NCBI GenBank assembly: GCA_043789255.1 | Contig: JAYWIA010001507.1 | Coordinates: 1-24,067 of the forward strand | Reading direction: 5' to 3' | Length of the DNA stretch: 24,067 bases | Origin: Myxococcales bacterium | GTDB lineage: Bacteria; Myxococcota_A; Polyangia; Polyangiales; Polyangiaceae | Part shown: piece by piece, positions 1-23,406 of the stretch | Layout of the letters: every line of letters starts with the position of its first letter | Position numbering within the stretch: the first letter of the stretch is position 1 | The notes under the pieces: generated by a model | What the model was told of the DNA's origin: nothing | Seen by the model: the letters and a program-made list of their open reading frames with translations, nothing else | The model's database searches: none | Program-made: the position numbers and the translations under genes

Positions 1-335
1 TTGCAAAGGATGTCCCCAAATTCGGGGTGATATAGGATGCCCGCGTCCCGTGCTTGAGTCGCCGTGACGAACGCGCGGAACGCGCTTGGGTAGAGCGGCT
101 GTTGCCACCGCTCCGAAGGCCCTGGCACGATGGTGTTGATGAACGGGATCGTGACGGTGAACACGACCGGCGCGAGGCCGGTCTGTTCGATGTCCGCCCC
201 GTCCACGCCAAAATACTTGTGCTCTCCCTGGTCGTGCTCGTAGCTCGTATCGATGGCTTTTATCGGGAAATAGACAGGTGCAGCTCCCTCGGACGCCCAA
301 CCCGTGTCTCCGAGCTGTGCGAAGAGGTCAGCCAT
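1..335 (-). CDS. Mu gp43-like DNA-circularisation/tail-baseplate protein, N-terminal domain (partial, runs off the window; absent from ORF track)
   Basis: Manual translation from ATG at 335 (SD AGGAG at 344-348): MADLFAQLGDTGW...HDQGEHKYFGVDGADIEQTGLAPVVFTVT...ILYHPEFGDILC. The H-x-Y-x-G-x-D-G...E-x-x-G and L-x-H-P-x-F-G pattern fits DNA_circ_N, and it follows the tape measure as in Mu-type tails. Confidence 0.8.
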   Translation of the reverse strand, partial: MADLFAQLGDTGWASEGAAPVYFPIKAIDTSYEHDQGEHKYFGVDGADIEQTGLAPVVFTVTIPFINTIVPGPSERWQQPLYPSAFRAFVTATQARDAGILYHPEFGDILC

Positions 336-352
336 GTCTTACGCTCCTGCGG

Positions 353-910
353 ATGATTCGTCCGCCCGCTGTCGTTGCCGTCCTGGCCCTCGCGCTCGCC
401 TTCACAACGAGCTGCACCAAGCGCTCCGAGGCAAACGACGTGGACGCGGAATCCATCCTCCCGCCCACGGCCCGAGCGCCAGTTTGCCGAGGCTGTGACG
501 GAGTGGAGCCCGTGAAGTGGGGGTTCGTCGGCATGTACCGCGACTCCGCATGCAAGCGCCCTGTCATCCAGGCCTTGCATATGGCGTGCGCCCCGGTGTC
601 GCTCCCTGCGAGTGGAGCAGAGGCGAAAGTGAGTATCTTCGAGCGCTTCCGAGGCCAACGCGGCCTTGGTCAGGAGCTTCTGCTCTCTGTGCGAGCCCCG
701 GTCACGCCTCAGGACAAGCTGTTCCTCTTGCGCGAAGGCGCGTGCCGCCCACAAGACGACAAAACCAAGCGCCTCCCCGCCGGCTGTAGCAACGGAGGCC
801 TCGTGTGCCGGACTGCGAGTGGAGCCCTAGCGTGCGACTCGTGCAGGAAGCTTGCGAATGGCTGCGCCGACTACGAAGGCGTCATGGCGTATCTAGAGGT
901 CTCGCCCTAA
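353..910 (+). CDS. Cys-rich lipoprotein (185 aa), antisense within the tail module
   Basis: From ATG 353: MIRPPAVVAVLALALAFTTSC (basic N-terminus, hydrophobic core, lipobox-like Cys), then 10 further Cys. No clear SD, so the start is inferred. Confidence 0.75.
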   Translation: MIRPPAVVAVLALALAFTTSCTKRSEANDVDAESILPPTARAPVCRGCDGVEPVKWGFVGMYRDSACKRPVIQALHMACAPVSLPASGAEAKVSIFERFRGQRGLGQELLLSVRAPVTPQDKLFLLREGACRPQDDKTKRLPAGCSNGGLVCRTASGALACDSCRKLANGCADYEGVMAYLEVSP

Positions 911-1048
911 GCCGGGACTTGCCTACACTCACCTACCTAATTCACTCGGTCGCTTGACCAATTGGTTTACATCGCCCACGACGCGCCTCGGTTGGACATG
1001 GGCGCACGACGCGCTCCAGACTGGTTCCTGGTCTCGTGGAAGAGATGC

Positions 1049-1091
1049 GGCCTCGAAGGTGCATGACGCACTTTCGGGGCCTTCTGCGTTT
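1049..1091 (+). terminator. Probable intrinsic terminator downstream of the lipoprotein gene
   Basis: 14-bp stem GGCCTCGAAGGTGC / GCACTTTCGGGGCC (two G-U pairs on the plus strand), loop ATGAC, followed by TTCTGCGTTT. Confidence 0.6.
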
Positions 1092-3403
1092 CAGTGCATC
1101 GTACCGCCCCGTGCACCGCCGGACATCGGAGCGTTCCGGTCGGGGTGTTCGGGGTGCGTGGACGCGCTTCCTGGGATCGTGGCCGCCGTGTTCGACAACT
1201 TCGCCGCGGCCGCTGCGATGGCCTTGTCTAGTTCCGACAGGCTTTTGACGATGCTCGTGTGCTGGTCGTTCGCGACGCGGGTTTTGACGGCCTGCGACTC
1301 GCGTGCAGCCTCGCCCGCCGCGCCTGGTAGGTGGGAAGCTGCGCCAAGGACCTTGTCCCCCACGGTCTCTTGCTGGTTCTCGTCCTTCGCCTTGACGAGA
1401 TCGCCCCGGAACGACTTCGCCTTCGCAAGGACCTCGCGGATCTTCGCAGGGTCATTTCCGGCGGCTTTGAGTTCGGCCTCGATACCGACCTCTTTGCTTC
1501 CGAGCATGGATCGGTCGGCAACCGCATCCTTTTCCTTGTCAGCTTCTTCCGCGAGCTTGTTGTAAGCGAGGTATGCGATGCCCGCAGTGACCGCGATGGA
1601 CCCGAGCGACATCGCCCCGCTCGCGCTAGAGAACGCGTTCGTGATGAGCTTTTGGATGCCCGCCGCGGCCATGTCCTTCGCGATGGCGGCGCCGATCATC
1701 GCCCCGATTCCCTGAAACGGGTGGTCGGCGAAGAACTTGATGGCTCCGGAAACCGTCGTTGTGAGCTGGGGGAGGTACGTGACAAATTGCTCGAGCGCGG
1801 GGAGAAGCGATGTCTGGAAGGCGTCTTGGACCTTCAGCATGGCTTGGTTGAATTGCTCCGTCCTGGTCCCCTGTACCGCCTTGAAGTCGTCTTCCGCGTC
1901 CTTCGGGGCGTACCCCATTCGCTCGAACTTCTGGACCGTCTTGAGCACGGCCAGAGAGCCCGCCTCGCCCTTCTTGGCCTTGGGGTCCTTTACCTTCGCT
2001 TCTCCTTCGGCCGCGTCATAGGTGGTTTTGAGCGATTCGAATGGCTTGATGCCGCGCTCGCCATAGATGGCCTGGATCTTGGCCATGTCGCCGCCGGTCT
2101 TCTTGAAGATTTCCGATATGATTTCGCCGGGGTCGCGAATCCCCTTCTTCGAGCCGTCCTTGTTGAAGTCGTTTACCTCGACGCCCATCGCGCGAAGCTG
2201 CTTTTGCTTCCCGGTCGTTTCCGCCACGAAATTGGACACGGCCGTGGCCGCCATTGGCGCCGTTCCGGCCGTTTTATAGGCGATCTGAGAAAGCCCCAAA
2301 AGCGATCGCTGCGCCTCCGTCTGGCCCATCGAAAACTGACCGGCCGACGCCGTAATGATGGCCGAGTGAGAAGCAAGGTCAGCCATCGAAATGGCGCCTA
2401 GCTTGCCCTGGCCTACGACGTTCAACATGGTTTTCATCATGTCTTCGGAAGAGATATTGTCGTTTTGCGTCTTGAGCGCTCCGGCCGCTCCCATCAATTC
2501 CATTATGTTCGTGCCGGACCCCTTCGCGAGCTTCGCGAGGCCGAAGAGCGTCTCTTTGCCGGCTTTGCGCTTTGCGGGGTCGTCTCCCGAGAAGGCCGAC
2601 GCATCCGAAGACTTCTCGACGTAGCTTTGCCACGCGGTGAGAAGCTCGTCCTTGTCGAAGCCCGTTGCGGCCTGGCCCTCCTTGGCGATGTCCATGATGT
2701 CGGACACCTTGGCGCGCTTGGTCCCTTCGATCTTCTCGCCGTTCGGCCCCTTCATGTCGGGGATGTACGTGGCGTTCGAAAGGTTGACCGCCGCGGACTC
2801 GAAGCCGTTCAGCTTCTTGACCGCATCGGCTGCCTGGAACCCGCCAAAGACGCCGCCGGCGAGGGCGGCGGCGTTGCCTGCCATGTTGATGCCAGTGGAC
2901 GCCATTCCGCCGGCGTAGCCGCCCACGGTTTTCCGGAAATCCGCTGTGCGCGCGCCGATGGTTTCCCGTGCGCGCGACTTCGCAAAGCTCTCTTCGAAGC
3001 GGGCCTGCTCTTCGGCCTCCCTCTTGGCGGCCCGCGTCTTCTCGCGTTGAGCATCCTCGAACGCCCGAACGCTCTCCTTGAGGCGGGCTTTCTGCTCGGA
3101 AAGGCGCTCCTTGTCGAGCTTGGCCAGTTCCTTGTTCGTGTCTGCCCATGCCTTCGCTTCGGCGTTCGAGGCCTTCTTCGTCTCCGCTTCGCGCTCTTTC
3201 ACGGCGCGCTTGGCTTCGGACGAGCGCTCCCGTTCCATGCGGGCAAGCTCGCGAGAGGCCTCTTTCCAAGCGCGTTCTTGGGCGCGGGCGGACTCGATCG
3301 CAGCCCGTTCGGCCGCACGGACAGAGTCCTCGACGCTCCGGAAAGCCTGCTGGACGTCGCGAATGCCTCCGACCTGGAATTCTGCCCGGATCGAAGCGGT
3401 CAT
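1091..3403 (-). CDS. Tail tape measure protein (770 aa)
   Basis: Long Ala/Gly/Lys-rich helical ORF with charged coiled-coil N-terminus and hydrophobic C-terminal segments, directly after tube and chaperone. Confidence 0.9.
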   Translation of the reverse strand: MTASIRAEFQVGGIRDVQQAFRSVEDSVRAAERAAIESARAQERAWKEASRELARMERERSSEAKRAVKEREAETKKASNAEAKAWADTNKELAKLDKERLSEQKARLKESVRAFEDAQREKTRAAKREAEEQARFEESFAKSRARETIGARTADFRKTVGGYAGGMASTGINMAGNAAALAGGVFGGFQAADAVKKLNGFESAAVNLSNATYIPDMKGPNGEKIEGTKRAKVSDIMDIAKEGQAATGFDKDELLTAWQSYVEKSSDASAFSGDDPAKRKAGKETLFGLAKLAKGSGTNIMELMGAAGALKTQNDNISSEDMMKTMLNVVGQGKLGAISMADLASHSAIITASAGQFSMGQTEAQRSLLGLSQIAYKTAGTAPMAATAVSNFVAETTGKQKQLRAMGVEVNDFNKDGSKKGIRDPGEIISEIFKKTGGDMAKIQAIYGERGIKPFESLKTTYDAAEGEAKVKDPKAKKGEAGSLAVLKTVQKFERMGYAPKDAEDDFKAVQGTRTEQFNQAMLKVQDAFQTSLLPALEQFVTYLPQLTTTVSGAIKFFADHPFQGIGAMIGAAIAKDMAAAGIQKLITNAFSSASGAMSLGSIAVTAGIAYLAYNKLAEEADKEKDAVADRSMLGSKEVGIEAELKAAGNDPAKIREVLAKAKSFRGDLVKAKDENQQETVGDKVLGAASHLPGAAGEAARESQAVKTRVANDQHTSIVKSLSELDKAIAAAAAKLSNTAATIPGSASTHPEHPDRNAPMSGGARGGTMH

Positions 3404-20582: not shown

Positions 20583-20600
20583 GCGCACGATCTAGGCGCA
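20573..20600. repeat. 13-bp tandem duplication CACGATCTAGGCG x2
   Basis: Copies at 20573-20585 and 20586-20598, overlapping the stop codon. Confidence 0.85.
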
Positions 20601-20620
20601 AACGCCTACAAAACGACGCA

Positions 20621-20655
20621 AGCGCCATGGTCCGAGACCATGGCGCTTTCGTTCA
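20621..20655 (+). terminator. Intrinsic terminator between convergent operons, possibly bidirectional
   Basis: Perfect 12-bp stem AGCGCCATGGTC-CGA-GACCATGGCGCT followed by TTCGTTCAGTT; A-rich tract on the other side. Confidence 0.7.
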
Positions 20656-21708: not shown

Positions 21709-22100
21709 GCTTCGACCCGGCACGGAATGTTCATTCGCACGGCAAGGCGCTTTAGGAAGCGCGTGGCATAGTCCTGCGCTTCGCTGGGCGCGTAGCGTGT
21801 GCCGTCCGCTTGATTGGCCTCGCGTGTGTACGTGTCCGAGGGCCAAACGGTAGTGAACCGTGCGCCGGTTGCGGTGCACACGTTGCGCACGCGCCATGCC
21901 GCACCACGTGCGCCCGGACGAAGCGCGACCATCGAACCGCTCGCGTCGTGCCAAAACCGAAGCGACCCGTCACGGTCTTTTTCGATGCGAACGCCGACCG
22001 TTTCGGCCCGAAAGTGACCTGGGCAATTCTCGGTAGCAGTGAACGAAAGAGCGTTCACAACGCGGTCAACGATAGAGGCCTCAATCGCGGTCTTGGACAT
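21705..22100 (-). CDS. Hypothetical protein (131 aa)
   Basis: First gene after promoter cassette copy 1; SD GGAAGGA. Confidence 0.75.
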   Translation of the reverse strand: MSKTAIEASIVDRVVNALSFTATENCPGHFRAETVGVRIEKDRDGSLRFWHDASGSMVALRPGARGAAWRVRNVCTATGARFTTVWPSDTYTREANQADGTRYAPSEAQDYATRFLKRLAVRMNIPCRVEA

Positions 22101-22119
22101 GGCGGAATCCTTCCGTTTC

Positions 22120-22201
22120 GGGGCGCGTCGTGCGCCCCGTGTGACTTAGTTATGCGCCCTAATGCCTATCTGGTCAAAGTCTTTTTATGCGTGACCCGAT
22201 A
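22120..22201 (-). promoter_or_regulatory. Repeated promoter/stem-loop cassette, copy 1
   Basis: A-tract, -35 TTGACC (22177-22172), 17 bp, -10 CATAAC (22154-22149), then hairpin GGGGCGC-ACGAC-GCGCCCC (22138-22120). Confidence 0.8.
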
Positions 22202-22220
22202 GATTCTTTCCGAGGCCTGG

Positions 22221-22253: not shown

Positions 22254-23258
22254 CTAGGCCGTTGCGAGGTCTACAGCGCGCCCCAACGCTCGCGTCGAAG
22301 TCGCAGCGGCCGAACCGCCAAGGGCGAGACTTTCAAGGCGGGATTCCGCCGTTCCTCCGCGCGGGCGGTCGTTCCCTAGGTATTCGGTTACCGCGTTGTA
22401 TGCGGCCCACCACGTACCGCGGACACCGGGCGCGGCATTGCCCTTTCCGCCGACGAAAAGCGCTTCTACACGCTCCGAGCGCTCGCGGGCGTAGCTTTCG
22501 GAGCGGGACTCTTTGGCCTCGCCCGCCGCCCGCTTTGCGAACGAAAGCAGGTCTTCTTTCGGCGGGGGCGCCTCGAACACATGAGCGACGTATTTCGCGA
22601 GGTCGCTCGGGTTCACCTGTCGGGCGGCAAGAGCCCGGTATTGTTCCGCCGTGGCCTCGAAACGCGCATGGGCGACGGCCATGGTGTTGCGCACCGCGTC
22701 GAGCGTGGATTTCATCCCGGCCGTGTGTCGGACACGTAGGAGGGCGCTTCCCGTGTCCCCGTGGGCGATCGCAAGGGTGTTCGCGCACACCACTCTCGTG
22801 GGGGTGTACCCCACGCGAACCGCCTTCGTTCCGTCGTGAGAATTGCTCAAAAGAACGTATTTTTCCACGACGTCATCCGCCTTCGGAACGATCACGAGGG
22901 GATCGCCGATGCGTGCGAGCACCCAAACGACGCAACCTCCTCGCAGGGATCCGGCCGTTTCAAGCGTCGCTTCGCCCGATTCGAGAATCGGATCGAACCA
23001 CGAGAACGCTTCCGCGTTCTGCAAAAGCGTGTAGTCGGGGCCCACCGTCCCCAGAATGGCGCGGTCCGTTGCGCGGACGTTCGCGAAGCGTTCTACGGTC
23101 CGCCCATCGGCGAGAAAGAGCGGTTCGCGAGCGACCTCCCACGCAAGGCCCGCATCGTGGATCGCCTCGGCCGAGGTCGGCGGATTGTCGAGGATCGCCC
23201 CGAGTTTGTGCCAGGGGGTCTCTCGGACGGAAAACATGCTTTCGACTTCGTGCGCCAT
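22254..23258 (-). CDS. DUF932/DUF945 family phage/plasmid protein (TIGR03299-like, 334 aa)
   Basis: MAHEVESMFSVRETPWHKLG, ETAGSLRGG, LLSNSHDGT, TPTRVVCANTL, GTWWAAYNAVTEY signatures. Confidence 0.92.
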   Translation of the reverse strand: MAHEVESMFSVRETPWHKLGAILDNPPTSAEAIHDAGLAWEVAREPLFLADGRTVERFANVRATDRAILGTVGPDYTLLQNAEAFSWFDPILESGEATLETAGSLRGGCVVWVLARIGDPLVIVPKADDVVEKYVLLSNSHDGTKAVRVGYTPTRVVCANTLAIAHGDTGSALLRVRHTAGMKSTLDAVRNTMAVAHARFEATAEQYRALAARQVNPSDLAKYVAHVFEAPPPKEDLLSFAKRAAGEAKESRSESYARERSERVEALFVGGKGNAAPGVRGTWWAAYNAVTEYLGNDRPRGGTAESRLESLALGGSAAATSTRALGRAVDLATA

Positions 23259-23280
23259 GATGGGAGGCCTTTCGTTTTGC

Positions 23281-23365
23281 GGGGCGCGTCGTGCGCCCCG
23301 TTCAGTCCTGTTGTTATGCGCCCTAACGTCGATCGGGTCAATGTCTTTTTATGCGTGACCCGATA
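23281..23365 (-). promoter_or_regulatory. Repeated promoter/stem-loop cassette, copy 2
   Basis: -35 TTGACC (23341-23336), 17 bp, -10 CATAAC (23318-23313), identical hairpin at 23299-23281; 29/30 identity to copy 1 over the upstream block. Confidence 0.8.
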
Positions 23366-23406
23366 ATCAAGGGTCACATGTAGGTGAGCATGCCGGACGC
23401 CTTGCC

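Follow-up and report, generated by a model that had tools for sequence, protein, structure and literature searches.

The region at 954-1091 of the window (the whole 24,067-nt stretch of DNA analysed, which is the complete contig C1507) contains a real extra copy of a conserved phage leader hairpin. This copy, to which we refer with its surroundings as site 3, is located in the 3′ flank of a lipoprotein moron gene, within the convergent spacer between that gene and a tape-measure-like gene. The contig is phage DNA; it forms part of a 7.8-Mb MAG (65% GC, 71% completeness), and the DNA of the window was located in one sequencing run, a biofilm metagenome. The minus strand begins with early genes (a DUF932 gene and others), followed by a PAPS-reductase-like gene, those for the terminase subunits, the head and the tail, and finally the tape-measure-like gene and the start of a gp43-like gene. 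A preliminary description, made from the letters of this DNA, had pointed to the hairpin and interpreted it as part of a small decoy RNA; re-reading the sequence showed that all its coordinates were correct.

The leader hairpin in early cassettes and in related phages

Two early cassettes lie on the minus strand of the window. Cassette B (22100-22212) consists of a conserved block, TTGACC, CATAAC, the hairpin (22139-22119), a ribosome site and ATG, and cassette A (23258-23385), with its hairpin at 23300-23280, precedes the DUF932 gene. The preliminary description had placed the cassette hairpins at 22138-22120 and 23299-23281 on this strand, which we confirmed, and had counted two cassettes; both are real, but longer assemblies show that the phage has four, plus one variant leader. 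L122, a longer assembly of the same phage (99.99% identical), carries four identical or near-identical promoter-hairpin cassettes (hairpins at L122 344-364, 1668-1688, 4516-4536 and 5677-5697, in the stretch L122 1-6400 that extends beyond the right end of the window), as well as a fifth early-gene leader hairpin at L122 2348-2364 (GCGAGC-ACGAC-GCTCGC), in which another stem carries the identical loop. Other assemblies of this phage are also 99.99% identical and so carry no population-variation information; no rearrangement is visible in them. In the cassettes and at site 3 alike, the hairpin is found 13-17 nt past the -10 hexamer and has no U-tract. Each cassette (22149-22201 and 23313-23365, minus strand) also contains two copies of CGCATAA, one within GGGTCACGCATAAAAAG ahead of the -35 hexamer and the other within TAGGGCGCATAAC at the -10 position, and these pairs may be operator-like sites. 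Elsewhere, at the boundary between the early genes and a divergent HTH gene block, the direct repeat GCGCCTAGATCGTG occurs twice at 20590-20650 (minus strand), directly after a 13-bp terminator-like hairpin (20648-20620).

As relatives we used contigs L125, L126, L134 and L136, whose DUF932 proteins are 63-68% identical. Their hairpins, with ACGGA, ACGAC or ACGAA pentaloops, stand 15-26 nt before early-gene start codons on eight different stems, all fully paired and most with a closing C-G pair; in L136 and L134 they also occur in tandem. Conservation of the loop in relatives, which the preliminary description had named as a check on its idea, was thus observed, in the form ACG[G/A][A/C]. Five of the six stem pairs changed on both sides and 98% of cells were paired, although these counts are biased towards pairing, since the hairpins were gathered by a hairpin scan; that scan selected neither for a location ahead of start codons nor for a conserved loop. 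On these comparisons the hairpin is a conserved class of phage early leader, in which the GC stem varies but remains paired, a C-G pair closes the stem, and the pentaloop is ACG[G/A][A/C]. Since the loops are better conserved than the stems, a loop-specific factor would be expected to read the early mRNAs. One candidate for it is the ASCH-domain protein, encoded at L122 3673-4029 and present also in L134. Several intergenic regions of the relatives (L136 835-942 and 1554-1710; also in L125 and L126) contain a GNRA-loop hairpin after the stop codon, a long inverted repeat and one or two ACGGA hairpins, with no sigma-70-like promoter visible there. L136 has, in addition, a real ribosome site that repeats the hairpin core, GGCACGGAGCC, right before ATG.

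We assigned to the class hairpins with at least 5 pairs, a closing C-G pair and a 5-nt loop beginning ACG. The hairpin at site 3 has 6 pairs and the loop ACGAC, and covariance model R1 matched it at 998-1018 with 22.6 bits (E 0.0037). Model R2, which was built from the relatives only and includes one hairpin sharing the GCGC-ACGAC-GCGC core, placed the two window cassettes on top, at 23.5 bits, with site 3 in third place (20.9 bits, E 0.012); the following matches in the window had 18.1 and then 12.7 bits. The same class gave no convincing match in 16.5 kb of tail-gene DNA of another relative, L119 (best 16.3 bits, E 0.44), and R2 matched the host genome only at E of at least 0.1, which is chance level, mostly in coding-looking sequence. 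No relative with site 3 was found, so conservation and covariation refer to the leader class and not to the copy at site 3 itself. Searches of Rfam gave no match at E up to 5 in 850-1150, and in the window only a tRNA reached the gathering score; a match to sroE over a cassette was rejected, its 22.9 bits being far under the 51-bit gathering score.

Wider searches did not extend the group. A nucleotide search of the 'phages' collection gave no match, the hairpin 17-mers had single scattered matches only in IMG/VR, the three matches to a cassette 18-mer were at chance level, and nothing came from searching viral, metagenome and genome contigs with the lipoprotein, the tape-measure protein and the gp43-like protein. 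One 17-mer match, in an unrelated prophage family of IMG/VR (L004-L016 and others), was set aside as a plain terminator on the other strand, with a T run after it, which means that the 17-mer sequence alone is not diagnostic. The 80 DUF932 loci taken from IMG/VR (43-55% identity) had other promoters and no such hairpin, and 200 genomes of the host family yielded short chance hairpin matches only. Two contigs of the MAG (C494 3525-3669 and C1008 1383-1480) have GCGC[A/G][C/T]GAC tandem repeats, including GCGCACGACGCGC, which are unrelated to the phage element.

Site 3 and its setting behind the lipoprotein gene

Site 3 opens with a promoter-like skeleton on the plus strand (954-982), formed by TTGACC (954-959), a 17-nt spacer and CACGAC (977-982). 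The palindrome ACCAATTGGT (957-966) overlaps TTGACC and is unremarkable, about 34 such 10-bp palindromes being expected per window by our own arithmetic. By sequence reading, an imperfect hairpin copy, GCCC-ACGAC-GCGC, occupies 974-986, with one C/C mismatch and its loop at 978-982. Its last ten bases, CACGACGCGC (977-986), the first six of which start 17 nt past TTGACC, recur exactly in the full copy (1005-1014). The full copy follows 26 nt downstream as TGGGCGC-ACGAC-GCGCTCCA (999-1018), in which GGGCGC-ACGAC-GCGCTC (1000-1016) forms 6 pairs including one G-U; it was found with the covariance models and is present in predicted folds. Behind it, folding predicts a long terminator-like hairpin (1042-1092) made of a 14-bp stem (1049-1062/1068-1081), the loop ATGAC (1063-1067), an outer helix and the tail TTCTGCGTTT. 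The apex of this stem, GC-ATGAC-GC (1061-1069), resembles the leader-type hairpin: over 15 nt (GGTGC-ATGAC-GCACT against GGCGC-ACGAC-GCGCT) 12 positions are identical, two of the three differences make up one compensatory change from a C:G to a T:A pair, and the two hairpins share their outer G-U pair. The two AYGAC loops reported in the preliminary description, upstream of and within a strong hairpin on the same strand, are therefore both present. As a whole, 989-1095 folds into the hairpin and the terminator with z = -3.1.

The same description had called site 3 a degenerate third cassette, and this holds in part. Compared with a cassette, site 3 retains the -35 hexamer, the 17-nt spacer, CAnnAC, 17 of the 19 hairpin bases and GGAAG-ATG, but it lacks the A-rich block, the ATCGGGTCACGCATAAAAAG and TTAGGGCGCATAAC blocks, the CATAAC hexamer and the repeated CGCATAA blocks. 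Outside the hairpin the alignment to the cassette is at background level and not significant, and the likeness there consists of short exact blocks. CACGAC matches TATAAT at two of six positions, and a promoter scan called no site here (the scan also missed all four cassettes); the promoter of site 3 is doubtful. There is no credible gene downstream: the sole ORFs, 1036/1045-1248 and 954-1565, are shadow frames on the strand opposite the tape-measure gene and run through the terminator. In position, site 3 thus departs from the leader class, whose hairpins stand on the sense strand 15-26 nt before an early-gene start codon. A further resemblance, TTATCGGG...AAATAGACA at 264-280, upstream of the lipoprotein gene, was set aside as probably due to chance; it lies within the gp43-like coding sequence.

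The similarity of site 3 to the cassettes was also assessed by counting, with patterns that were defined post hoc, after the site had been seen. The 15-mer GGGCGCACGACGCGC has three copies in the 24-kb window versus none in the other 7.77 Mb of the MAG. The comparison with shuffled DNA proposed in the preliminary description came out in favour of the motif: the window has four AYGAC-loop hairpins whose stems have 6 bp or more, where 200 dinucleotide shuffles gave 0.3 on average and 2 at most, the four counting as three independent events since the two cassette copies duplicate each other. We found TTGACC-N17-CANNAC in the window only in the two cassettes and at site 3, versus 16 times in the other 15.5 million positions (0.05 expected per window); G-Y-GC-AYGAC-GC-R-C four times inside the contig, two of them 57 nt apart at site 3, versus 20 times across the 15.5 million positions outside; and the 15-nt pattern common to the site 3 hairpin and the terminator apex twice within these 57 nt, versus once in the other 15.5 million positions.

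The gene in front of site 3 (353-910, plus strand) encodes a Cys-rich secreted or lipoprotein-like protein of 185 aa; GC content by codon position agrees with this plus-strand frame, and the N-terminus, which resembles a signal peptide, ends in Cys. It is divergent from the start of a gene similar to the DNA circulation tail gene of Mu, gp43 (1-335, minus strand; a relative, P0157, has PF07157), of which L121, another contig of the same phage, carries the full length (337 aa). On the other side it faces the tape-measure-like gene (1091-3403, minus strand), which has weak matches to PhageMin_Tail and phrog_794 and a relative at 63% and converges on site 3. In L121 this gene has a G-to-A difference at window position 3146 (L121 9781), which turns codon 86 from TGG into a stop, and it is called there as two pieces of 85 aa and 611 aa; a second difference, at 1101, replaces Thr with Arg three codons ahead of the stop of the gene.

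Comparison of the junction with L138, L119 and L120 identified 336-1090 as an insertion. In L138, whose gp43-like protein is 55% identical, 3 nt separate the tape-measure stop from the gp43-like start; at the same junction L119 and L120 (63% identity for the tape measure, 73% for the gp43-like protein) have an unrelated 189-nt insert, filled by a reverse-strand ORF whose 58-aa product has a zinc ribbon and a hydrophobic segment (L119 6557-6733; L120 4249-4425). The lipoprotein gene is missing at this junction in all three. The two different inserts point to the tape-measure/gp43 junction as a landing place for reverse-oriented envelope morons. The closest homologue of the lipoprotein, at 67% identity, lies on a 401-kb bacterial contig (L128 5780-6400, JGI), where it adjoins no more than the first approximately 7 codons and the ribosome site of a gp43-like gene, as well as an MmeI-type restriction-modification gene; this arrangement suggests a prophage remnant. 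Seen in these comparisons, the lipoprotein moron is a foreign, horizontally acquired gene. The 3′ flank of the homologue on L128 lacks this hairpin, and any similarity there is weak at best (p about 0.04). The 136-nt spacer after the moron of our phage stands out, as neighbouring gene calls are a few to about 20 nt apart and the moron of L119 and L120 has no spare bases.

Sequence reading and the scan found no hairpin or terminator in 911-953, nor a terminator from the stop codon (910) to 1042. With no terminator ahead of the 14-bp hairpin (1049-1081), the module would be transcribed at least as the 3′ UTR of the moron, which we infer to be the default reading over a discrete RNA of about 100 nt. 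The terminator itself is a candidate: its stem is strong, and its tail, TTCTGCGTTT, is below the 5 T in 8 bases required by the scan. On the minus strand the tail of the same hairpin, GCATCTCTTCC, is a poorer tract, and the better T-rich tail on the plus strand fits a terminator of the moron that late minus-strand transcription can pass.

Likeness to known regulatory elements

The cassettes resemble the promoter-early stem-loops (PeSLs) of the T4-type phages RB49 and phi1 (Arbiol et al. 2010, PMC2839356). PeSLs are repeats of about 100 nt before small early genes. Each combines a host-type promoter, A-rich in its upstream part, with a GC stem-loop, a Shine-Dalgarno sequence and a start codon; the stem-loop is a terminator that precedes the -10 box, overlaps it or sits between the two boxes, and the copies recombine, moving the flanked genes as mini-circles, with crossovers documented within the stem-loop (PMC2839356). 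The cassettes of our phage are likewise repeated blocks of promoter and stem-loop before small early genes, and their copies could be substrates for gene shuffling. However, unlike a PeSL, they have the hairpin downstream of the -10 hexamer, free of a U-tract, and a conserved loop on variable stems. Site 3 is still further from a PeSL: it is gene-less, has a decayed promoter in place of a strong sigma-70-like one with an AT-rich upstream part, and its stem-loop is not a terminator before, between or over the promoter boxes. By these features the cassettes and their hairpin are a variant on known phage regulatory cassettes and leader hairpins, and not a member of the PeSLs.

With the nut sites of lambda the leader hairpin shares a 5-nt loop near the start of an early transcript and a loop that is more conserved than the stem. 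The boxB loops of lambda, which are bound by N, are GNRA-like (GAAAA, GAAGA, GACAA). A literal nut/boxB signal, raised in the preliminary description, does not fit site 3, as its loops, ACGAC and ATGAC, are not boxB-like and no boxA adjoins them; boxA (YGCTCTTW) occurs five times in the window versus 2.4 expected, with none near site 3, and two of the matches lie 66 and 158 nt downstream of cassette hairpins, within genes. The system further differs from lambda in that no N-like protein was identified, the loops of the class are ACGAC, ACGGA and ACGAA, and site 3 precedes a putative terminator whose read-through would give only antisense RNA.

As with CsrB and RsmZ, a non-coding RNA bearing multiple copies of a motif from mRNA leaders could act as a competitor for a binding protein. 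Those RNAs, however, have many GGA loops and depend on CsrA, whereas site 3 has only 2 to 2.5 copies of its motif. The literal CsrB/RsmZ logic offered earlier had to be dropped: the loops of site 3 contain no GGA (the two GGA of 989-1095 are both outside loops), and no CsrA was detected in the host genus. PF02599 was detected in none of eight genomes of the genus, the MAG included, five of them at least 90% complete, with positive controls. In the relatives the ACGGA loops do contain GGA (GGAG with the next G), whereas the ACGAC and ACGAA loops do not.

Three other settings are comparable in part. Provided that the promoter is correctly called, the leader hairpins are within a few nucleotides of the predicted 5′ end and beside the ribosome site, as are the 5′-terminal stabilisers of the ompA and T7 phi10 leaders, although plain stabilisers need no conserved loop. 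In the manner of sRNAs derived from 3′ UTRs, site 3 would form the final structured portion of an mRNA ahead of its terminator. Lambda bor and similar genes are lipoprotein morons that are reverse-oriented, against the late operon, and have their own terminator. The likeness to bor is one of setting only, a lipoprotein gene placed against the late operon and followed by a candidate terminator of its own; bor-type morons are not known to carry copies of an early-leader hairpin.

Possible roles of the extra copy

We tentatively favour, at a confidence just below even, the view that site 3 is a gene-less early-leader module with a weakened promoter, which is carried in the 3′ flank or 3′ UTR of the reverse-oriented, acquired moron. 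The full copy and the terminator apex would then present the same loop to the factor that reads the early leaders, and the shared loop would link the fate of the moron mRNA to the early programme. Together, the hairpins and the terminator could protect the 3′ end of this mRNA and block plus-strand transcription that would run antisense into the tape-measure gene.

Alternatively, site 3 may be a scar with no present role, left by recombination or gene conversion with an early cassette when the moron flank was built, in shuffling of the PeSL type. We regard this as rather unlikely. Repeated 100-nt cassettes would be good substrates for recombination, crossovers within a stem-loop have the PeSL precedent (PMC2839356), the promoter blocks of site 3 are decayed, and the 3′ flank of the L128 homologue is free of the hairpin. 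On the other hand, an unbroken run of 15 bases and the -35 hexamer have been preserved, whereas the sequence between them appears random, a distribution that evenly spread neutral decay would not give; the copy at the terminator apex has stayed paired despite a double change; and the phage is otherwise tightly packed.

An independent sRNA gene, as the preliminary description had it, appears unlikely. The weak promoter at 954-982 would then drive an RNA of about 100 nt (roughly 989-1090) that has its own terminator and titrates the early-leader factor. The retained -35 hexamer, 17-nt spacer and CAnnAC agree with such a gene, as do the predicted fold of 989-1095, the two loops on one strand and the tandem leader hairpins of L136 and L134. 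Its -10 hexamer, however, has only the two consensus positions noted above, the A-rich and CGCATAA blocks of the cassette are missing, and the promoter scan was blank at site 3 (though blank at four cassettes too); moreover, the same RNA segment would be produced anyway as 3′ UTR. Related to this, and to our mind doubtful to a greater degree, is the possibility that the 3′ end of the moron transcript, whether processed or made from its own weak promoter, is an RNA sponge, in which two ACGAC-type loops would compete with five early leaders for a loop-specific regulator of an undescribed kind. If so, expression of the moron would tune the early programme.

Two explanations that involve no RNA are much weaker. 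The element could be an operator in double-stranded DNA, with the palindrome GGGCGC-N5-GCGCCC, both at site 3 and at the early promoters, as the target of a dimeric protein; it is indeed an inverted repeat and, in the cassettes, lies just downstream of the -10 hexamer. Nevertheless, we consider this very improbable. Within single genomes the arms differ and yet remain complementary (this phage has GGGCGC and GCGAGC, L136 has GGCCGC and GCGCGC, and L134 has AGCGC, CGTGCGC and CCCCGA), and the conservation of the asymmetric centre ACGNN and of the strand marks the element as a folded single strand, most simply RNA, and not as a target of half-site recognition. A chance likeness of GC-rich hairpins is hardly credible: such palindromes are common, and the 17-mer has about a dozen independent occurrences in IMG/VR, near expectation by our own arithmetic, but the 15-mer count in the MAG, the shuffles, model R2, and the compound promoter and paired patterns each give a low expectation, and the features occur in the same order on the same strand.

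The leader hairpin is absent from Rfam and is present in a small group of uncultivated GC-rich phages. A functional site 3 would mean either that a foreign gene has been connected, via its 3′ end, to the early regulatory circuit of a phage, or that the phage makes an RNA sponge. A scar would be a record of cassette-mediated gene shuffling outside the T4-like phages.
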